From Minisyncoccota bacterium (GTDB lineage Bacteria; Patescibacteriota; Minisyncoccia; Phycocordibacterales; Zambryskibacteraceae): a stretch of DNA of 64,000 nt. Positions within the stretch are counted from its first letter, which is position 1. The number at the start of each line of letters is the position of its first letter. A program made the position numbers and the translations under genes. This document shows positions 3,146 to 55,891 of the stretch, in pieces. The notes beneath the pieces are model-generated. The model made no database searches. It worked only from the letters and a program-made list of their open reading frames with translations, and had not been told where the DNA came from. The stretch lies in the NCBI GenBank assembly GCA_020059045.1, contig JAGVCW010000018.1, positions 25,320-89,319 of the forward strand, given 5' to 3'.

Positions 3146-3234
3146 ATAGTTGAATAAAGAATAGCGAATATCGAGGGTGGAGTAAACATACTCTTAATTC
3201 ATCATTCCTTATTCCTTACTCTTCCTCCGACATC

Positions 3235-4152
3235 CTACAGCCAGTGCCTATGCTTAAAATAAGCAAACATGAGAAGACAGGCAAAAGCCATAATTCCGAG
3301 TATGTACCAGAAATCGTTCGGTGATCCAATGATAGGGACCGAATCAGCTTCAATGGAAAAGATAGCCGCAATAAGTGTTAGTGGGAATGTCACAAACGCC
3401 ATAATAGTTAGCGTTTTCATGATCTCATTTTCCTTTGTAGAAAGTATTGAATTGTTCGTTTCTCGTAGTTCAGCCACAAACTCCAGGTTATTTGTCAGAA
3501 TATTTTGAACCTTTGAGTACTCGTTTATTACGGACTTAATGTGGTGAGAGAAGTATTCTCCAAACATTCTGTGTCCGAACGAATCAAGCGAATCCAGGAT
3601 CTCCCGATGGAAAACTGTTATTTTTCTGAAGTTCAGTAGTTCGCGGCTCACTTCAGAGAGTGCACGAACCATTTCTTTCTCTTTTCCTTCAAATATATTT
3701 TTTTCAATTTTCGAGAGCCAATTATCAATATACTCAAGTTCGTTGAAAAGTGACATATAAATCTCATTTACAATACCAAAGAAGATTTCCCCGGTAATAT
3801 TTTCACCGAATCCCTTATCAAGTATTGTGTTAACCTCTACCACTTTTGCAAACTTGTCTACAGAGTCTATGGTGTCGTAGCGGGTAGTAATGAGGAAGTT
3901 CTTCCCAATGACGAAATCAATTTCCTGTCGGACCTCACTATCAGTATGGCTGTGTTTGAAAGCGGGGAAATGCAGAATAACGTATATATATTGTTTGTAG
4001 AGCTCTACTCTAGATTTGATAGTAGGGGAGATCAGCTCATGAGCAATATCTCTACTTAAAGAGAATTCCTCCATCACACTTCTGATCTCATCTTCTGTGG
4101 GTTTGGTGATATCTATCCAGACTACACCTCTGTAGTTATATCGATTTATCAT
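3235..4152 (-). CDS. CorA-family divalent cation transporter homologue lacking the GMN signature
   Basis: 305 aa with two C-terminal TM helices and a CorA-like C-terminus (LTIMAFVTFPLTLIAAIFSIEADSVP...YFKHRHWL). The position of the canonical YGMNF loop reads FSIEA instead. Confidence 0.75.
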   Translation of the reverse strand: MINRYNYRGVVWIDITKPTEDEIRSVMEEFSLSRDIAHELISPTIKSRVELYKQYIYVILHFPAFKHSHTDSEVRQEIDFVIGKNFLITTRYDTIDSVDKFAKVVEVNTILDKGFGENITGEIFFGIVNEIYMSLFNELEYIDNWLSKIEKNIFEGKEKEMVRALSEVSRELLNFRKITVFHREILDSLDSFGHRMFGEYFSHHIKSVINEYSKVQNILTNNLEFVAELRETNNSILSTKENEIMKTLTIMAFVTFPLTLIAAIFSIEADSVPIIGSPNDFWYILGIMAFACLLMFAYFKHRHWL

Positions 4153-4285
4153 TCACTTAGAAATTTAAATATGCAACATAATAATTTTAGCATATTCTTT
4201 TGTCATTGTGCATGTATAAACATGGATGCCAAAATTTTCGACTCTGTTATAATGGTTCCTACATGTTTGAAGCTGTCGCGCACAA

Positions 4286-5587: not shown

Positions 5588-5715
5588 ATCCCGTTAGAGA
5601 CGGTCGGGGTTAAGAGTAATATACAATAGTAATAAGCGTTTAGAGGTCGAAAAAATCATTTAATAAAAAATCTAATCAAGACAGGAATCGAAAGGTTCCT
5701 TGTCTCTAACGGGAT
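5588..5715 (+). repeat. TIR-bounded ~125 bp element, copy 3 (ATCCCGTTAGA ... TCTAACGGGAT), ending in the rplI start codon
   Basis: A perfect 11 bp inverted repeat at 5588-5598 and 5705-5715. The final AT of the downstream repeat is the first two bases of the rplI ATG (5714). An internal hairpin GACAGGAAtcgaaaggTTCCTTGTC precedes the downstream repeat. Related copies are at 26261-26385 and 54938-55062. Confidence 0.7.
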
Positions 5716-6163
5716 GAAGGTAATACTACTAAAAGATGTGCCAAAGATTGGTAAGAAATATGAGGTCAAGAACGTGGCTGAAGGTCATGCTCTCAATTTT
5801 CTTATACCCCGGGGTCTAGTTGAGACTGCCACAAAGAGCGCTTTAGAGAAGGTTAAGACTTACAAGACTCAAGATGAAGCAAGGAGGAAAATACAGGAAG
5901 ACCTACTTCTGAAAAATATTGCGGATCTCGAGGGTGTAAAGATAGAGATGAGCGAAACAGCGAATGACAAGGGTCACCTTTTTGCAGGTATTCACAAAGA
6001 AGAGATAATCCCAGAAATTTCAAAACAGACTAAGCTTGAGATTCTTCCAGAGCACCTTCTGCTTGATAAGCCTATTAAGTCTGTCGGTGAACATATAATA
6101 GAAGTCAAAATCAGAGATACTCACGCCAAATTCACTCTAATTGTAAGCGCAAAGACAGATTAA
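5714..6163 (+). CDS. rplI: 50S ribosomal protein L9
   Basis: 149 aa, MKVILLKDVPKIGKKYEVKNVAEGHALNFLIPRGL..., canonical L9 N-terminus. Confidence 0.9.
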   Translation: MKVILLKDVPKIGKKYEVKNVAEGHALNFLIPRGLVETATKSALEKVKTYKTQDEARRKIQEDLLLKNIADLEGVKIEMSETANDKGHLFAGIHKEEIIPEISKQTKLEILPEHLLLDKPIKSVGEHIIEVKIRDTHAKFTLIVSAKTD

Positions 6164-6849: not shown

Positions 6850-7065
6850 AAAAAAAGATCCTGCAGGTTGCATTCGCCTCCTCTTTACTCCTCACTCTTA
6901 ATTCTCTGCTCCTAATTCTTTATTCTCCATTCCTCATTCTACGATTCATCATTCATTCTTCTCCCTTTCCACTGCACTCATTATTTTAGTAGTTAGATCA
7001 ATTAGAAATTCTCTCCCTTACTCCTCATTCTTCCCCCGCTCTTGCTACGTTGTTGGTTGTCGGTG
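6850..7065. repeat. polypyrimidine (+ strand) ATTCNT/TCCTCATTC-rich tract, locus A, containing a 39 bp core shared with locus B (6979-7017)
   Basis: Low-complexity CT-rich + strand run (tcctcattc, attcat repeats). The core cattattttagtagttagatcaattagaaattctctccc matches 37848-37886 at 35 of 39 positions. Confidence 0.6.
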
Positions 7066-26262: not shown

Positions 26263-26385
26263 CCCGTTAGAAGTAAGGAGTCGTGAGACTCCTGTTTTGT
26301 TAGTATAGTAAATAAAACGCTATCTCGAGTATCTGGCACATACAAATTTATCGTTGTTTTAAAGCACAACCACTTCTAACGGGAT
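26261..26385 (-). repeat. TIR-bounded ~125 bp element, copy 1, oriented so that its terminal repeat ends in the murG ATG
   Basis: ATCCCGTTAGA at 26261-26271 and TCTAACGGGAT at 26375-26385. On the minus strand the sequence reads ...CCTTACTTCTAACGGG-ATG-AAG, the murG start. An internal hairpin CAGGAGTCtcacGACTCCT is present. It shares the blocks GATAAATTTGTAT.TG.CAGAT and TTTTATTTA with copy 2. Confidence 0.7.
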
Positions 26386-26428
26386 GAATCCCGTTAGATC
26401 CTCATTTTAACATATAATTTTGGCACTT

Positions 26429-31505: not shown

Positions 31506-31728
31506 TACAATGTGTCAAATTATAGCCTAAACAAGCCATTTCCCTAACAATTGACTTATACAAACTCCGTGCTATAATTTTGCTCATCTTGTTCTTCCGA
31601 GTGAGTCTGAAGTGTATCTCGCGCGTTAATCAAATTTCTTGTCCGCTTGCATCTAAGGCAGCAGATTTTTTAATTTTCAATTTTCTAAACTTATCCAACT
31701 TATACAACATATTAAACTTATCAACTAA

Positions 31729-33024
31729 CTACGGGTTAAGCCTTTTTACATCCCTTGGCAAGAATGTTGCCTCTCTCACGTTAGGCAGATCAAGTATTTT
31801 CATTATGAAGCGCCCTGGTCCAATACCAGCACCACCATGTGGCGGCACGCCAAAGCGAAAGAAGTTTATATAGTCACGAAGTGGTTCTAGATCCATTCCT
31901 TTTTCAAGAGCATGTTTTTCCAGAATCTCTGGTCGGTGCTCGCGCTGGGCAAGTGTAGTTACTTCAAGTCCTCTGTATATAAGATCAGCTCTTCGAGCAA
32001 ATTCTGGGTTATCAGGATGCCTCATGTGATAGAAAGCACTTCTTGACTTGTGATAATCCATGAGGAAAACAAACTCATGGTCATATTTTTCCCTCACATA
32101 CTCATATAGTGCCTTCTCCTCTTCAGGTGATATGTCATAAGGCTCACTACTAGGTACCCCTTTTCCAGCTAATATTTTTTTTGCGTCAACCATACTTATT
32201 CGTGGGAATGGTCTTTTCGGTACGGTTATAGCTGTCAGAGGATAAGCCGCGAGTATTGATTCAAAGCCAGATACAATCATTCCTTCTTCGGCATCCATAA
32301 CATCGTGATGTGATTCGACGAACCCCATCTCGAAGTCCCAGCCAGTAAATTCTGTAAGATGTCTTGTGGTAAACGAGTGTTCCGCTCGAAATACTGGACC
32401 AACCATACAAACTTTCTCAAATCCTGAAGCAATAGCCATTTGTTTATAAAATTGTGGCGATTGGGCAAGGTATGCTTTACGATCGAAATACTCCACAGTG
32501 AAGACTTCCGCCCCTGTCTCAGACGGGGTTGACATAAATGCCGGTGGATATACTTGTATAAAGTCATTTTCTGACCAGTACTTTCTCCAACCTTTTTCAA
32601 ATTCTGTCCAAACTTTAAATATCTGTGTTTTCTCAGGCTTACGTAGATCAATCCATCTATAATCGAATCTTACAGGAGCCTCTGTTTCCTCTCCACCCTT
32701 TAAGGTAACGACTGGTATTGGGAGTTCGGGCTCTGAAGCCGATAGTACTTGGAGATCTTCAATTTGTATTTCAAAGCCACCTGGTGCATTAGTTTCCTTC
32801 TTTACACTTCCTGTTATGCGAACTACGGACTCTAAAGTTAGATCCTTTGCGCTTTCAAAGGTTTGGCTATCCTTTGTAATAACAACTTGCACAATACCAG
32901 TCACATCTCTAAGTACTAGGAAAATAATCTTGCTCTGGATACGGAGGGCCTGTGCAAACCCCTGAAGAGTAATACTTTTTCCTTCGTGACTTGCCAAATC
33001 TTTAGTATGAATTGCCTTAAGCAT
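31729..33024 (-). CDS. class IIb aspartyl/asparaginyl-tRNA synthetase (compact type)
   Basis: 431 aa with an N-terminal OB anticodon-binding domain and class II motifs 2/3 (FRAEHSFTTRHLTEF...GGAGIGPGRF). Asp versus Asn specificity cannot be resolved from the sequence alone. Confidence 0.82.
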   Translation of the reverse strand: MLKAIHTKDLASHEGKSITLQGFAQALRIQSKIIFLVLRDVTGIVQVVITKDSQTFESAKDLTLESVVRITGSVKKETNAPGGFEIQIEDLQVLSASEPELPIPVVTLKGGEETEAPVRFDYRWIDLRKPEKTQIFKVWTEFEKGWRKYWSENDFIQVYPPAFMSTPSETGAEVFTVEYFDRKAYLAQSPQFYKQMAIASGFEKVCMVGPVFRAEHSFTTRHLTEFTGWDFEMGFVESHHDVMDAEEGMIVSGFESILAAYPLTAITVPKRPFPRISMVDAKKILAGKGVPSSEPYDISPEEEKALYEYVREKYDHEFVFLMDYHKSRSAFYHMRHPDNPEFARRADLIYRGLEVTTLAQREHRPEILEKHALEKGMDLEPLRDYINFFRFGVPPHGGAGIGPGRFIMKILDLPNVREATFLPRDVKRLNP

Positions 33025-37523: not shown

Positions 37524-37562
37524 GCAAAAAACCACTTTGAGTTTATCGAAAAGTGGTTTTTT
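37524..37562. terminator. bidirectional intrinsic terminator
   Basis: AAAAAACCACTTTgagtttatcgAAAGTGGTTTTTT, downstream of the histidine kinase gene on the minus strand. Confidence 0.6.
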
Positions 37563-37799
37563 GAAAGCCTACTGATTAAGCAGCAACTTCTCCTTCTGCT
37601 CCTTCCTCCTTTGGTTTAACTGGATTCATAGGATCCATTGCTGGGTCCTGGGTGTTATTTGGTTCCATGATGATTTATAGTACTTAGAATGCTAATAATC
37701 TAGCTGTATTCGACTCCAAACGGCCTCTCTTGCCGAAAAATAATACTCGACGATTAGCCGAGTCCCTCTAAGTATACAGCACTCAATTCTAAATTGCAA

Positions 37800-37925
37800 G
37801 CATCAACCCCCCCAAGTATTTATTCATATCATTCGTGGGATCGTATTCATTATTTTAGAAATTAGATCAATTAGGAATTTTCTCCCTTTTTATTCCTCCT
37901 TCATTTTTCCTTATTCTTCCTTCCC
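37800..37925. repeat. polypyrimidine/ATTCNT tract, locus B, with a 39 bp core (37848-37886) nearly identical to 6979-7017
   Basis: The core cattattttagaaattagatcaattaggaattttctccc is followed by ttattcctccttcatttttccttattcttcc. It runs into the 3' end of the histidine kinase ORF. Confidence 0.6.
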
Positions 37926-39578
37926 CGGTATCTCAATATAGAATGTTGAGCCCTTTCCTTTACCATCTGACTCCACCCACACTCGCCCCTTATGTGCCTC
38001 AACCATTTGCTTAGCAACATATAGTCCTAGTCCTGTCCCAGAGACATTTGTTTTGGATGCGTCCTTAGCTCGCGAAAACATTGAAAAGAGCTTCGATGTT
38101 TCCTCAGGTGCTATACCCACACCAGTGTCAGTTATTGAGAACCTAATTATATGATCAGAAGACTTCCCCACAGAAACTGTGATACCTCCTTTTGGTGTGT
38201 ACTTTATCGAATTATCAACAATATTACCTATAACTTGCTTAATCTTACCTCGGTCGGCTCTTACCATGTATTGCCCGGGATTTGCCTTGTACTCAAAGCT
38301 AAGGCCTTTTTTCTCTACATTTGGACGCAGTTCAGCTACTACTTCTCGAGCAAGCACTTCCGCATCAAAGTCTGTTAATTCGTATTTCATTCTTCCCTGC
38401 TCAATTCGTGATACATCAAGGAACTCGTTTACAATTTTAATAAGGCTCTTTGATGATTGATCAATAATACCTATTTGGTCCATGATCTTTGGAGGTACTT
38501 CGCCAAAGTCTCCTTCCAGAAGCATAGAAGCATATCCATCAATTGCTGTCAGTGGAGCTCGAATTTGATGTGATGCAAATGATAAGAACTGGGATTTAAG
38601 CTGATCTAATTCCCTGAGTCTTGTATTCGCCTTCTCTAAGTCTTGTGCAAGCTTCTCTATCCTTTCGCGCTGCTTAATTTCACGTTCAACACTTCTGATA
38701 AGTAGGTACCCGAAAACAAGTGTAAGCAGGACAGTTATGGTATTTAAGATAATGGCAGTTCCTCCATCTATGAATGTATATTGGGTTCCTATAAGTGCAA
38801 CAAGACCAGCAACGAGCATCTGTACTCCCAAAACCTTTATGTTAAAGGCCTGGAACTTGACAATTAAATATGCAAGGAACGCTACAAATACAATCATTCC
38901 AAATAGGCCGTATATTTCAAAAGTATAGTTGCCTGTTCTCTCAGAAATCTGTCCAGCAATGAAGAATGCGAATATGAATCCCAAGATGCCGATGGTTAGT
39001 AGGCTAATCTGTTTTCGTAGCTGACTTTTTGCCTCAAAAAATTTATAAATACCAAACCCCAGAATAATGACAGACAAAATAAGCTTAAGATAAAATACAT
39101 AGCTCAAAAACAAAGGGCTCTCCAGAGCCACACACTCCTGCAGATCATATTCTGTTAAATATGACGTTGTTGGCGCAGCAATAATAATTGGCAAAAGTAG
39201 CAGTGCGAAACCAATCTTTGCAATTATTGGGGCATCCTTCTTTGTAATAAATACATATACAAAATAAAGACACAGTTCAAACAGAAGTACACTGAAAATT
39301 TCAATAGGTGCCCACGAGAACATAAGAACACTTGCCTTATCGTAGTTTATCCAAATTGCAAGATCGAGAAACGCCCATAATGAGAATACCAGACTAATGG
39401 AGAGTAATATTTTGGCCAAAAGGTCCTTTTTGTTTTGTGTGTATACAAAAACTCCTGCCAAAAGTGCAATTATTGCTGTAGGTATGTGCGAGTAATATAA
39501 AAGCTTTAAGAGATTATCGACAAACTCCCCACAGTAGGCGAGGTTCTCTGAAAAGTTGAAATCAATAATTTCTAGCAT
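37911..39578 (-). CDS. sensor histidine kinase with a multi-TM N-terminal sensor domain
   Basis: 555 aa with 6-7 predicted TM helices. The HisKA H-box is FASHQIRAPLTAI, and HATPase_c N/G boxes are present (DNSIKYT, DTGVGI, GTGLGL). Confidence 0.85.
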   Translation of the reverse strand: MLEIIDFNFSENLAYCGEFVDNLLKLLYYSHIPTAIIALLAGVFVYTQNKKDLLAKILLSISLVFSLWAFLDLAIWINYDKASVLMFSWAPIEIFSVLLFELCLYFVYVFITKKDAPIIAKIGFALLLLPIIIAAPTTSYLTEYDLQECVALESPLFLSYVFYLKLILSVIILGFGIYKFFEAKSQLRKQISLLTIGILGFIFAFFIAGQISERTGNYTFEIYGLFGMIVFVAFLAYLIVKFQAFNIKVLGVQMLVAGLVALIGTQYTFIDGGTAIILNTITVLLTLVFGYLLIRSVEREIKQRERIEKLAQDLEKANTRLRELDQLKSQFLSFASHQIRAPLTAIDGYASMLLEGDFGEVPPKIMDQIGIIDQSSKSLIKIVNEFLDVSRIEQGRMKYELTDFDAEVLAREVVAELRPNVEKKGLSFEYKANPGQYMVRADRGKIKQVIGNIVDNSIKYTPKGGITVSVGKSSDHIIRFSITDTGVGIAPEETSKLFSMFSRAKDASKTNVSGTGLGLYVAKQMVEAHKGRVWVESDGKGKGSTFYIEIPGKEE

Positions 39579-47422: not shown

Positions 47423-47451
47423 ACCCCTTATCCCTCCTTATTCCTCATTCT

Positions 47452-48105
47452 TTATTCATTATTCTTCCCTTCATACTCTCCAATCTGAACTTTAGCTGGT
47501 CTCACAAGCTTTCCATTTAGCATATACCCTGCCTGAAACACTCCCTTCACCATATGATCTTCTTCTTTTTTAGTAACAGGAACCATGTTTACTGCCTCAT
47601 GCAGTTTTGGGTCAAATGCTTCACCAAGGGCTTTTATTTTTTCTAAACCATGACTTTCAAGGGCCGCTACTAGTTGGCCAATACTTGATTCCATACCTTT
47701 CCTCCACTCGGGAGGCAACGCCTGCCAGGCGGCCTCATCCTTTCTAGCAATTTCAAAACTATCCAGTGCTGGGATAATATCAGATAGAAGTCCGGCAGTA
47801 GCCCATTTCATAAATGTTTCTCTGTCAGAACTATCTTGCTTACGAAGATTTAGGAAATCTGCCTTATCCTTTTGCCAATTTGTTAGGTATTCCTGCTTCT
47901 CCTTTTCAGCTCTCTTAAGTTTTTCCCTAAGTTTCTTTATGGTTTCCTGCATGGACTCTTCCGCGACAACTGAGTCATCCCTATACGCATCTTCCTCAAG
48001 ATGCGTCGGGCGATCATCCACAGATGATTTAGCCAGATCTGTGTCGGTGTCGACAGTTACGTCATCGGCCTCATGATTTTCGTTTTTATCATCATCTTTT
48101 TTCAT
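47452..48105 (-). CDS. grpE: nucleotide exchange factor GrpE
   Basis: The GrpE fold is clear (coiled-coil plus C-terminal beta domain, ...RKDEAAWQALPPEWRKGME...). The start is probably M at 48105 (MKKDDDKNE). The ORF track extends it to 48195 with a hydrophobic, unlikely N-terminus. Confidence 0.85.
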   Translation of the reverse strand: MKKDDDKNENHEADDVTVDTDTDLAKSSVDDRPTHLEEDAYRDDSVVAEESMQETIKKLREKLKRAEKEKQEYLTNWQKDKADFLNLRKQDSSDRETFMKWATAGLLSDIIPALDSFEIARKDEAAWQALPPEWRKGMESSIGQLVAALESHGLEKIKALGEAFDPKLHEAVNMVPVTKKEEDHMVKGVFQAGYMLNGKLVRPAKVQIGEYEGKNNE

Positions 48106-50716: not shown

Positions 50717-51130
50717 CTAGCGTTTACTCCACTGAGGTGCTTTTCTTGCTTTTTTGAGACCGAATTTTCGGCGCTCCTTCATTCTAGGATCACGTTTTAG
50801 AAATCCAGCCTCCTTTACCTTTTTGCGAAGTGTCTCATCATGCTTTACTAGTGCCCTTGCTATGCCGTGTCTCACAGCCCAAGCCTGCGATGATATCCCC
50901 CCTCCAACAATTTGTGCTGTTACCTTAAATTTCTCTGTGATCTTACTTTTATCAAAAGCCTCTCTCAAAGTATTCTGTAGCTCCTTTGTAGGGAAATAGA
51001 TTTCAAGCTCCTTACCGTTAACAGTGAAAGAGAACTTCGTCGCCTCAGTCATTCTAACTCTGGCAACAGATGTTTTTCTGCGTCCAACTGCCTCAATATA
51101 TTTTTCTTTTGATTTAGTATCTCTTTCCAT
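50717..51130 (-). CDS. rpsI: 30S ribosomal protein S9
   Basis: 137 aa ending in ...RRKFGLKKARKAPQWSKR. Confidence 0.92.
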   Translation of the reverse strand: MERDTKSKEKYIEAVGRRKTSVARVRMTEATKFSFTVNGKELEIYFPTKELQNTLREAFDKSKITEKFKVTAQIVGGGISSQAWAVRHGIARALVKHDETLRKKVKEAGFLKRDPRMKERRKFGLKKARKAPQWSKR

Positions 51131-51249
51131 CCCAGTACAAAAATTTTTATATAATTATTTCGCTAATAATACGTAATTTGAGACGCTTGTCCACACATTT
51201 TCATTGTTTACAGTTTGCTGAAATTTCATACGGGACAAGTATTTATTCT

Positions 51250-51974: not shown

Positions 51975-52045
51975 GAATCTTGTATGTGTTCTATTTGATT
52001 TAAGAATTACATTTATAACATCTATAACAATTAGAACATGTAAAC

Positions 52046-53653: not shown

Positions 53654-53749
53654 GGGTTAAAGTTAAAAGGTAATGTTTAAAATTTAAATTATTCGTTTCT
53701 TGGCCTGAATTATCATTTTGTTTCTTGATATTTCAGTTTTCAATTGACT

Positions 53750-54178: not shown

Positions 54179-54357
54179 TTATCTATTCCCACTTATTTTA
54201 TTTGAGCAGTCCCTAATGGTGCCCCTTAAAAATCTTATTTTACGAAAATAAACCCCCACTGGGCATGTTGTCCAGATAAGGTATTCATATGGACTACTAC
54301 TCTAACATGTGAGTAGAAATGTGCAAGCCCCACTTTTTAATAGTGCTTTCATGTGGC

Positions 54358-54738: not shown

Positions 54739-54822
54739 GTATTTTCTTATTTAGTATCTAAACTTATCAATCTTCTAAGCTACTTCCTAACTTATTAAAC
54801 TTTTTTAACTTATCAACTAACT

Positions 54823-54939
54823 CTATCCCTGCCTCTGCTTATGTCTAGGATTAGCTTTGCATATAACATAAACATAGCCCTTCCTTCGGACTACCTGACA
54901 CTTGGTGCACATCTTTTTTACTGAAGCCTTAACTTTCAT
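54823..54939 (-). CDS. rpmJ: 50S ribosomal protein L36 (below the ORF-track size cutoff)
   Basis: Manual translation of the minus strand gives [38 protein letters not shown] (38 aa, a C-x2-C...C...H zinc ribbon). The ATG overlaps the terminal inverted repeat of repeat copy 2. Confidence 0.85.
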
Positions 54940-55062
54940 CCCGTTAGATGTAAGGAGTCCTTAGACTCCTGTCTTGCTAGGTTATTAAATAAAACTCTAT
55001 TTCGGTCATCTGACATATACAAATTTATCATTATTCTTTACCTCGACTACATCTAACGGGAT
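54938..55062 (-). repeat. TIR-bounded ~125 bp element, copy 2, oriented so that its terminal repeat ends in the rpmJ ATG
   Basis: ATCCCGTTAGA at 54938-54948 and TCTAACGGGAT at 55052-55062. On the minus strand it reads ...CCTTACATCTAACGGG-ATG-AAAGTT. An internal hairpin CAGGAGTCtaagGACTCCT is present. It is about 75% identical to copy 1. Confidence 0.7.
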
Positions 55063-55149
55063 TCATCCCACAATATAATCTAATCAAATATACGAATTAA
55101 GATTGTACATGAGATAGTATTATAGTCAACAAAGAGTGGTATGGTTGAT

Positions 55150-55175
55150 ATTTCCGTCGGGAAGCTTCCGGAAAT
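55150..55175. promoter_or_regulatory. 26 bp near-perfect palindrome (operator-like) just upstream of the 55185 gene
   Basis: ATTTCCGtcGGGAAGCTTCCgGAAAT, centred on AAGCTT and ending 10 nt before the GTG start. Confidence 0.35.
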
Positions 55176-55184
55176 AATGCTACT

Positions 55185-55649
55185 GTGCTACAAATAAACA
55201 GGACCCTCCACCTAGAGGTAGCTGTGCAAAGACGTTACTACGCAATTATTCTTTTGTTGACGCTTGTTGGTCTCCTAGCAACAGCTCTGTTTGGATTAGT
55301 TCAAACGCCTGAAGAAGTGTTAGGGGCTCTTGCTTTAATAGGCACATTTTGTACCTTGGCAATCTACAACTTTCCGCATAATCGTCAATTACGACTTCAT
55401 AGGGAAATGAAGTTTGTTCTTGAGGAGATTCGTTTCATTGATAGCGAGATCGCTAACCTAGAAATCAGCAAATGGCGAATTAAAGCAGAGTACCCTATTG
55501 GTAGATCTCAAGCTCTACCACAAATATCTTGGTACCAAGCATGGAACCACAAGGAGAGAATTAGAGAATTAAAGGCAAGAAAACCAGAACGCGTTGAGAG
55601 ACTTTTCGCGCTTGTGATGAATTCCAAAATACCACTTACAATCGATTAA
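55185..55649 (+). CDS. hypothetical 2-TM membrane protein inserted between infA and rpmJ on the opposite strand
   Basis: 154 aa with a GTG start, two TM helices and a charged C-terminal helix. It is antisense to the flanking conserved ribosomal operon. Confidence 0.45.
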   Translation: MLQINRTLHLEVAVQRRYYAIILLLTLVGLLATALFGLVQTPEEVLGALALIGTFCTLAIYNFPHNRQLRLHREMKFVLEEIRFIDSEIANLEISKWRIKAEYPIGRSQALPQISWYQAWNHKERIRELKARKPERVERLFALVMNSKIPLTID

Positions 55650-55669
55650 TGAGTGGTTTTTTTAATTTC

Positions 55670-55891
55670 TTAGAGTCTTCTAATAATTCTTCCTTTACCA
55701 CCATATGGATCAATTTCTACTTCTACACTATCACCGACAAGAATACGGATTTTATGCATACGCATTTTGCCCGATAGATACGCGAGGAATTCCTCTGCAC
55801 CGTTTTCAGGCATTACTTTAAACAAAATATTTGGGAATGCTTCGGTTACTTTTCCTATAATTATTTCTTGTTTTTTTGTTGGGTCAGGCAT
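55670..55891 (-). CDS. infA: translation initiation factor IF-1
   Basis: 73 aa S1-like OB fold, ...[51 protein letters not shown]... Confidence 0.9.

Follow-up and report, generated by a model that had tools for sequence, protein, structure and literature searches.

The stretch of DNA analysed here, referred to as the window, comprises 64,000 nucleotides of contig JAGVCW010000018.1 from a Minisyncoccota bacterium of the candidate phyla radiation (CPR, Patescibacteria). Its minus strand carries rpmJ, the gene for ribosomal protein L36, which is followed downstream by genes that encode, according to Pfam, S13, S11, S4, RpoA, L17, L13 and S9. The infA gene lies upstream (55670-55891, minus strand), and the 730-nt gap between infA and rpmJ holds two separate things: a palindromic element of about 120 bp at the rpmJ ATG, termed copy C, and, farther upstream, a divergent open reading frame (ORF) of 154 aa. 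The features of the locus are as follows.

54823..54939, minus strand: rpmJ (ribosomal protein L36), 38 aa; Pfam PF00444 Ribosomal_L36, positions 1-38 of 38, E 5.9e-23
54935..54939, minus strand: right copy of a 5-bp target-site duplication, ATGAA, made up of the working rpmJ start codon and 2 nt
54938..54952, minus strand: 3' strand of the terminal stem P1, UACAUCUAACGGGAU; contains the A and the U of the L36 AUG and a UAA stop codon 4 nt before this AUG
54940..55061, minus strand: copy C, element proper, TCCCGTTAGA...TCTAACGGG, 122 bp; match to the family covariance model R1 with 91.1 bits, E 5e-16
54953..54970, minus strand: hairpin P3, AGGAGUC-UAAG-GACUCCU, directly stacked on P1; all 7 pairs covary family-wide
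55048..55062, minus strand: 5' strand of P1, AUCCCGUUAGAUGUA; duplex free energy about -23 kcal/mol
55066-55031, minus strand: upstream ORF (uORF) of copy C, 11 codons, MNPVRCSRGKE*
55062..55066, minus strand: left copy of the duplication, ATGAA, with which the uORF starts; read directly from the sequence
minus strand, ending 5 nt before the left ATG: weaker putative promoter-like site, TTAATT-17-TATATT, read from the sequence
55102..55129, minus strand: putative promoter-like site, TTGACT-16-TACAAT, upstream of the element; sequence match
55185..55649, plus strand: orphan 154-aa ORF, separate from the element, inserted between infA and the promoter of rpmJ

The first-pass annotation of this DNA had rpmJ encode 38 amino acids from position 54939, and the start codon is indeed correctly called, because the Pfam match spans the whole protein. 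It had also made the start codon part of a repeat. This agrees with the coordinates: the plus-strand CAT of the rpmJ start occupies 54937-54939 and the repeat ATCCCGTTAGATGTA begins at 54938, so that the A and the U of the L36 AUG lie inside the repeat. The 15-mer occurs, with up to 3 mismatches, 7 times in the window against 1.44 occurrences expected, and none of 100 shuffles reaches this number. A perfect inverted partner of ATCCCGTTAGATGTA is present at 55048-55062. In the 15-bp stem that the two can form (55062-55048 with 54952-54938), the outermost two pairs involve the A and the U of the L36 AUG. The partner of the A is the leading T of TCCCG and comes from the element, and the partner of the U is the last base of the left duplicate.

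Together with both duplicates, copy C spans positions 54935-55066 of the window. As ATGAA is found both at 55066-55062 and at 54939-54935, the rpmJ ATG belongs to the duplicated target. The earlier suggestion that the element supplies the L36 start codon is therefore not borne out. About 250 further copies were found outside the window, in Parcubacteria and other CPR genomes and metagenomes. They come from an exact-pattern scan with one genome per species (the genome set, at least 119 stretches with copies) and from a scan of metagenome contigs with a pattern that does not require an ATG (the metagenome set, at least 120 further stretches), and all family counts given here are counts among the matches listed in these two scans. 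The 5 nt before TCCCG and the 5 nt after CGGG are identical in 75 of 112 copies of the metagenome set (ATGAA 52, ATGAG 10, ATGGA 10, ATGCG 5), and copies away from start codons are flanked by ATAAA or ATCAA. Filled and empty sites are available for comparison. At the rpoA-rplQ junction, the empty locus L122 has a single ATGAA at the rplQ start (...aaaaca ATGAA tcatag), and the filled loci L032 and L021 have ATGAA[TCCCG...CGGG]ATGAA at the same codon. The interiors of the latter two belong to different classes, which makes the two insertions independent. Loci L238 (filled) and L038 (empty) form a second such pair. Since filled and empty sites differ by a 5-bp duplication that starts at the A of the ATG, the element behaves as an insertion of the kind of miniature inverted-repeat transposable elements (MITEs). 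Further traits of MITEs are also present, namely small size without coding capacity for a transposase, terminal inverted repeats, and several similar copies per genome. The target preference goes beyond the ATG, because ATGRA is found at 86% of the junctions in the genome set and at about 31% of the gene starts in the window. At rpmJ, the element proper would thus have been inserted at the start codon with duplication of ATGAA; the right duplicate would now serve as the L36 start, and the left one would have remained behind the old rpmJ promoter.

The window contains three intact copies of the element (before rplI, murG and rpmJ), each of which ends in the ATG of its gene. Folded on the gene-sense strand, copies A, B and C form a long-range stem around the rest of the element (-38 to -47 kcal/mol, z about -5). 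This stem, P1, consists of 11 near-invariant pairs and three variable ones (A-U/G-C, A-U/G-C and U-A/C-G), for which all eight combinations are found, and the terminal inverted repeats TCCCGTTAGA(RRY) and (RYY)TCTAACGGG are 99.5% paired over 14 positions. In the commonest class of copies, a 7-bp hairpin, P3, lies directly 5' of the 3' strand of P1; it has the form GG-N5/N5-CC with a loop of 3-4 nt, and has AC before it and a single U after it. The window copies are of this class, with AGGAGUC-NNNN-GACUCCU abutting P1. In a second class, recognized by eye, P3 is replaced by a long-range 7-bp helix, CGCGGUC/GACCGCG, with a 4-nt NYCU bulge, so that both classes build 14 + 7 bp of helix. Among 53 aligned copies, 98.1% of the cells are paired, and the covariation score is 0.393, compared with 0.151 in shuffles (0 of 500 reach the observed value) and at most 0.097 when the partner is slid. 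Double-sided changes affect three P1 pairs and all seven P3 pairs. The arms themselves have compensated variants, ACCCCG/CGGGGU (with a GUG start in L074 and L041), AUCACG/CGUGAU and GUCCCG/CGGGAC. Copies are 105-140 bp long, with short forms of about 70-83 bp, and about 90% of them have the AUG exactly at the stem base. In 50 of 249 copies, a CGGGA-like decoy of the 3' arm lies 20-40 nt into the element, compared with 7 for the reverse-complement control.

An AUG that is buried in a stem of -23 kcal/mol should be blocked for initiation unless the stem is opened. Shine-Dalgarno sites are nearly absent from this genome (any such 4-mer in 8 of 67 window genes), and a TAnnnT box is found 4-10 nt before the start of 24 of the 67 genes. 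Such TAnnnT/TATAAT-like boxes so close to the ATG imply that leaderless mRNAs are probably widespread here. At the left edge of the element, -10-like boxes are most frequent 6-10 nt ahead of the left ATG in 55 copies that lack an ORF close upstream. In the genome set, 15 of 127 copies have a left ATGA whose TGA terminates the upstream gene, and in 10 more the upstream gene stops at a TAG inside the 5' arm. In view of these boxes and of the upstream genes that end in the ATGA or in the arm, ribosomes appear to reach the element at its left edge. The spacing of the two ATGs has a phase bias (97:64:44 in 205 copies), and in the favoured phase the uORF that starts at the left ATG ends at the UAA in the 3' arm. 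Among the 97 in-phase copies, 52 have no interior stop in the frame of this uORF, as opposed to 3 and 12 in the other two frames. Compared with shuffled interiors, open copies are in excess in two independent samples (26 of 55 and 26 of 44 copies, with shuffle means of 5.6 and 5.7, respectively). Only 8 of 205 copies are open in the frame of the main ORF, which indicates that N-terminal extensions are avoided. The uORF peptides are not conserved among copies.

The frame-specific avoidance of stops suggests that translation from the left ATG may cross the hairpin and pass ribosomes on to the real start. In the transcript, the element ends and the duplicated bases would pair as the 14-15-bp stem P1, with the 7-bp P3 stacked on it. 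Ribosomes initiating at the left AUG, or coming from an upstream cistron, would melt P1 as they translate into the element. In many copies, termination would follow at the UAA of the 3' arm, and reinitiation could take place at the AUG close by. Only a duplication that contains an ATG would keep an entry for ribosomes upstream of the hairpin, which may be the reason why the element has persisted at such sites; at other places, an insertion would either be lost or silence the gene. In copies with a decoy of the 3' arm, the decoy suggests an alternative way to keep the AUG accessible. Decoy and bridging uORF rarely occur together (5 copies). As a whole, window positions 54935-55066 are best explained as a copy of a non-coding, palindromic, MITE-like insertion element with an inferred translational relay, a reading to which we assign a probability of roughly two in three.

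Several observations weigh against this reading. A bridging uORF is present in only about 29% of the copies and in none of the three in the window. The uORF of copy C ends early, and copies A and B, which have lost the left ATG or never had it, carry a CGGGGU decoy (copy A) or an adjacent solo arm (copy B), so the relay leaves the opening of the stem in the window copies unexplained. The frame that leads to the arm UAA is also open in 25-33% of the copies with the left ATG out of phase, and the statistics on phase and stop avoidance ignore the shared descent of subfamilies. No autonomous relative with the same ends and a transposase was found in about 1.7 Mb of element-bearing loci, a weak negative that concerns these loci and not whole genomes. 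The orientation of the copies relative to the gene is strongly biased: canonical copies outnumber reversed ones 71:2 in the metagenome set and make up about 94% of the genome set. A symmetric cut-and-paste mechanism would not be expected to give a bias of 94-97%, for which either an asymmetric mechanism or selection has to be invoked. The three variable P1 pairs are perfectly complementary in each of the eight R-R-Y combinations; a plain DDE-type terminal repeat has no need of this, which hints at selection on a folded single strand. With respect to the nature of this strand, RNA or DNA, G.U and A.C on the sense strand number 26 and 18 in P1 and 10 and 7 in P3; apparent sense-strand wobbles are mostly at position 1, the base from the duplicated target. 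Without an excess of G.U over A.C, selection on P1 itself at the level of RNA is not demonstrated. The ends of the element are identical across many CPR lineages. The orientation bias, the complementarity of the variable pairs, the failure to find a transposase and the identical ends together keep three rivals alive: RNA processing, movement as single-stranded DNA, and a host factor that recognizes the stem.

According to the first of these, RNase III or a dedicated endonuclease would cut the base of the stem and leave a leaderless mRNA that starts at or near the AUG, which would convert cistrons that are internal or have a leader into leaderless ones. P1 and the stacked P3 (or P2) make up a helix of about 21-22 bp, the topologically different classes both arrive at 14 bp + 7 bp with a short pyrimidine bulge on the 3' strand, and the AUG is nearly always at the stem base, in a genome without Shine-Dalgarno sites and with many starts of the leaderless type. 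There is also a precedent, as RNase III binds and cleaves the Correia elements of Neisseria (PMC2649163), and a passage of a 2025 survey treats RNase III among RNases in the context of factors retained in CPR (PMC12641178). However, RNases specific for double strands need no invariant sequence of 9-11 bp, P1 alone is short for canonical RNase III, and processing would leave the duplicated left ATG, the phase bias and the frame-specific stop avoidance unexplained. We consider this alternative unlikely.

In the second alternative, the element is a folded hairpin of single-stranded DNA that is moved by a host HUH/tyrosine enzyme, as in the IS200/IS605 group or for the repetitive extragenic palindromic (REP) sequences and their REPIN doublets with the REP-associated tyrosine transposase (RAYT), or by a recombinase, as for attC sites of integrons. 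The covarying stems would then be DNA structures, which fits P1 and P3 without G.U-over-A.C asymmetry; the strong orientation bias would follow the direction of replication, and the lack of a transposase between the arms would be expected. Conservation of the arms across the phylum would fit a vertically inherited single-copy enzyme, for which REPIN/RAYT is a precedent (PMC3116915), and GTTAGAR/YTCTAAC in the arms resembles the core sites of attC. Yet IS200/IS605 elements and RAYTs make no target-site duplication, whereas the variable 5-bp repeat is matched here on both sides. The core sites have the opposite order to those of attC (GTT... on the 5' strand), and a REP-type GTAG foot is not evident. 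Taken together, this alternative seems quite improbable. An IS200/IS605-type target plus right end was also considered as a source of the repeats and rejected, as it leaves variable repeats that match on both sides unexplained.

In the 1.7 Mb of element-bearing DNA, there is only one pair of arms more than 160 nt apart, at 268 nt. It is found in L057 (RAAC4_OD1_1, positions 3873-4166), where the variant arms ACCCCGTTAGA/TCTAACGGGGT form a head-to-head palindrome with a partner 268 nt off, and the longest ORF inside has 87 codons. Some other candidates were dismissed on simple grounds. For a group I, group II or bulge-helix-bulge intron, the element is too small and lacks the bulges and an exon-exon helix. 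The pattern of copies is wrong for a DNA uptake sequence. Reversed copies do not qualify as terminators, because the tract beside P3 is mixed A/T and not A-rich.

For the infA-rpmJ junction, relatives were reached through S13 homologues, as exact-protein look-ups with the L36 and S13 of the window gave no match. By its S13 homologues, the window belongs among the Paceibacteria/Minisyncoccia. Three relatives, with S13 proteins 78-79% identical, share the order [~400 aa][~450 aa] infA rpmJ rpsM rpsK rpsD rpoA rplQ rplM rpsI. Their infA-rpmJ gaps measure 18 nt in L122 and 53-98 nt in L125 and L120, the latter with 98 nt and a promoter, the former with the promoter TTGACT-17-TAGAAT followed by 10 nt. 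Neither the element nor an extra ORF is present at this junction in any of the three. The linkage of infA and rpmJ is thus interrupted in the window, as had been proposed, and none of these relatives has the same interruption without the element. Most of the gap is a separate insertion that consists of the orphan ORF with what look like promoter and terminator signals of its own. The ORF had been described as a membrane-protein gene. It does exist, but the label has no backing from Pfam or from homologues: there is no Pfam match, and among 5.8 billion protein clusters the only homologue is the protein itself. Two hydrophobic segments can be discerned in it. The 26-bp palindrome reported in front of this ORF proves to be an inverted repeat of 8 bp, TATTTCCG/CGGAAATA, whose halves are 12 nt apart (55149-55176), and not a perfect 26-mer. 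Behind the ORF, beside infA, there is a weak bidirectional terminator-like hairpin with a U-run (55625-55665), which resembles 37525-37565 (repeat family D11).

It had also been proposed that the element provides the promoter of the ribosomal genes. The best promoter-like site (55129-55102) lies upstream of it, which makes the element a leader and not a promoter, and the TTGACT -35 box upstream of the left ATGAA is kept as in L120 and L125. Inside the element, 53 aligned copies have no positionally conserved -10 or -35 box (both boxes are present in 2 of 53), and -10 boxes are not positionally enriched before P3 in the same copies. This also bears on the possibility that the element is an invertible promoter switch, with arms that recombine and flip the 100-bp interior, or that it marks a rearrangement breakpoint, which would explain the broken infA-rpmJ linkage. 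The interior is reversed, with flanking ATGNN unchanged, in L007, L017, L033, L051 and L057, and the junction is indeed disrupted in this genome. The reversed copies nevertheless form a related subfamily of their own across genomes (L033, L051, L111) and are not flips of neighbouring types, and the genes concerned are essential housekeeping genes. A breakpoint, which the first-pass annotation had offered as its second option, is at odds with the position of copies A and B at ordinary, syntenic and unrearranged junctions (S41 peptidase-rplI and ftsW-murG), and with the separate origin of most of the extra DNA at infA-rpmJ. Switch and breakpoint are therefore extremely unlikely. A diverged copy, ATCCCGTACGAAGT...ACTTCGTAACGGGATG, lies between infA and rpmJ in L021, a Zambryskibacteria genome, and there is no element at this place in L018. 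The rpmJ start is thus a recurrent target and not an inherited regulatory site.

The covariance model R1 detects in the window exactly the three intact copies (82-91 bits) and one weak match. Apart from copy C, these and an associated arm are as follows.

5588..5715, plus strand: copy A, ending in the rplI (L9) start codon at 5714-5716; left repeat decayed to AGGAA; R1, 84 bits
26261..26385, minus strand: copy B, between ftsW and murG (murG ATG at 26262-26260); R1, 82 bits
26388..26398, plus strand: solo arm adjoining copy B; forms a perfect 11+2+11 palindrome with the 5' arm of copy B, TCTAACGGGAT-GA-ATCCCGTTAGA, 26375-26398
51130..51241, minus strand: probable decayed relic in the 119-nt rplM-rpsI spacer, ending in ...CUGGGAUGGAA (...GUACUGGGAUGGAA) at the S9 start, with GUCCCGUA near its 5' end; weak R1 match, 12.9 bits, E 2.5

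Copies B and C are 80% identical, and for rplI, downstream of copy A, both the N- and the C-terminal domain of L9 are matched in Pfam. The solo arm beside copy B, which could compete for the 5' arm, is probably what remains of a tandem copy. Full tandem copies or similar head-to-tail junctions occur in L046, L048, L010, L075 and L239, and suggest that insertion into the regenerated ATGAA has occurred repeatedly. In the window, rplM and rpsI are 119 nt apart, compared with only 4-5 nt in the three relatives, and the sequence of this spacer is probably a decayed fourth copy.

Other spacers of the alpha operon are also longer in the window than in the relatives, namely rpsM-rpsK (179 nt, 54179-54357, vs 10-113), rpsK-rpsD (96 nt, 53654-53749, vs 4-48) and rpoA-rplQ (71 nt, 51975-52045, vs 14). 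These three spacers have no covariance-model match to the element. The 84-nt rpmJ-rpsM spacer (54742-54822; 20-38 nt in relatives) shares with the intergenic region 31669-31730 an AACTTAT-rich repeat of 34-36 nt that is 72-85% identical (families D13, D14). A second family of intergenic repeats is pyrimidine-rich (CTCCTTATTCCTCATTC-like) and found at 3190-3238, 6880-7033, 37847-37933 and 47429-47481 (D1, D3, D4, D12); the pair 6978-7033 / 37847-37902 has 82% identity over 56 nt.

The hosts in the genome set include Kaiser-, Wolfe-, Yanofsky-, Nomura-, Zambryski-, Harrison-, Taylor-, Moran-, Kerfeld- and Levybacteria and other Patescibacteria. Record titles that name a taxon all point to CPR among the matches listed, except for two bins of third-party annotation (TPA) records labelled Gammaproteobacteria (L034, L039). 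These 'uncultured Gammaproteobacteria' contigs with canonical elements are probably mis-binned CPR contigs, because the element is otherwise confined to CPR. In the IMG/VR viral sequences, there was no match to the element, and thus no carriage by phages was seen. Pairs of near-identical copies within one genome are found in L054, L048 and L046. An ATG with an ORF of at least 38 aa is present on exactly one side of 112 of 128 copies in the metagenome set, where the pattern did not ask for it. The proteins encoded downstream are diverse, with 105 clusters among 127 proteins in the genome set, among the matches listed, and include ribosomal proteins, MurG, TopA and aminoacyl-tRNA synthetases.

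This diversity bears on the claim that the element defines the 5' untranslated region of a ribosomal operon. It stands insofar as the element forms a transcribed leader immediately 5' of rpmJ, with the start codon in its terminal stem, and it fails insofar as the element is not specific for this operon, since it precedes more than 100 gene families. A dedicated cis-regulatory leader, be it a riboswitch or an autoregulatory site for a ribosomal protein, would control rpmJ-rpsM-...-rplQ through alternative pairing that hides or frees the AUG. A stable, covarying structure that sequesters the AUG is present, and the decoys of the 3' arm would permit a two-state fold. However, the presence of copies before more than 100 unrelated gene families, instead of a single one, largely refutes the idea. 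The interior is not conserved in the manner of a ligand pocket, the target-site duplications and the filled and empty sites speak for insertion, and the element is absent from rpmJ in close relatives. There is also no match in Rfam 15 by gathering or E-value thresholds: none was obtained in the window, those around copy C were at chance level only, and a search over 15 element-bearing loci returned tRNAs only. We therefore regard a dedicated leader as very unlikely. ARAGORN predicted no tRNA or tmRNA in the window. In the searchable full text of the literature, no description of the element was found, and arm sequences matched primers by chance only; nothing relevant was found on CPR in combination with MITEs, with REP, inverted or palindromic repeats, or with leaderless transcripts. 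The family, a mobile hairpin of about 120 bases at start codons, is thus apparently undescribed.

The element is best filed with the MITE and REP kind of repeats, and its closest working analogue is the Correia element (CREE/NEMIS) of Neisseria. Like the element, Correia sequences are non-coding, have a size of about 100-150 bp and terminal inverted repeats, and duplicate their target site. They often adjoin genes, with which they are co-transcribed as mRNA hairpins that affect the expression of the neighbour (PMC2649163). In contrast to the element, they duplicate TA, have 26-bp repeats, can create promoters at their ends, bind integration host factor, and show no register with start codons. 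The element, for its part, makes a 5-bp duplication from the A of the ATG, has the AUG in the stem and no internal promoter that could be seen, bears signs of a uORF relay, and occurs across a whole candidate phylum and not in one genus. REP sequences and REPINs are also short palindromic non-autonomous repeats, which persist for long, with the mobilizing RAYT encoded elsewhere as a single-copy gene (PMC3116915). REPINs differ in being doublets of REP palindromes that are extragenic, mostly 3' of genes, and without target-site duplication, whereas the element has a duplication and consists of one long stem and one subterminal hairpin.

Rickettsia palindromic elements are selfish palindromes in reduced genomes, which are tolerated where expression of the host gene continues. 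They insert in frame inside coding regions and are translated within the protein. This is not the case for the element, which lies at the start codon and has the frame of the gene almost always closed. Classic termination-reinitiation coupling (ATGA/TGATG) is similar insofar as the left ATGA keeps the stop-start overlap in some copies, and reinitiation works at UAA-AUG distances of the 4-nt type (PMC6728339). It differs in that the putative relay runs via a non-conserved bridging ORF of 38-42 codons on a mobile element. Integron attC sites are likewise folded imperfect palindromes. They vary in length and sequence but share short conserved core motifs (GTTRRRY/RYYYAAC-like), and they all point the same way between successive ORFs. 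Unlike attC, the element has a 5-bp duplication, GTTAGAR on the 5' strand and YTCTAAC on the 3' strand, i.e. the reversed order, and neighbours such as rpmJ, murG and rplI, which are core housekeeping genes and not cassettes. The Tas-associated TIGR arrays, also found in CPR, are described as 36-nt units with alternating edge and loop repeats of 8-12 nt and spacers of about 9 nt, beside a gene for a Nop-domain protein (PMC12045711). By this description they are set apart from the element, the units of which are about 120 nt long, mostly solitary, and at gene starts.

The CPR account for a large share of bacterial diversity, and have tiny, streamlined genomes that are usually thought to be poor in mobile DNA. 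A family of repeats in well over a hundred species-level genomes, located on the start codons of essential genes, is of interest against this background. It accounts for many unexpectedly long spacers in otherwise tight operons. It can also mislead gene callers: L36 is not on record as called at this locus, and the left ATG yields spurious small ORFs. The exact 23-nt signature is a handy marker for CPR contigs. In addition, the element offers a natural test of how ribosomes reach an AUG in a stable stem without a Shine-Dalgarno site, and raises the question of what machinery keeps a 10-bp terminus constant across a whole phylum. A bolder proposal, which we regard as doubtful, is that the element is a phylum-wide mobile module for translation initiation or RNA processing. 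A conserved CPR factor would recognize the invariant stem UCCCGUUAGA/UCUAACGGGA and the stacked 7-bp helix, and the downstream gene would be expressed only after translation upstream or after cleavage that yields a leaderless mRNA. If this were true, such modules would represent a new way to organize gene expression in bacteria without Shine-Dalgarno sites, which depend on leaderless mRNAs.

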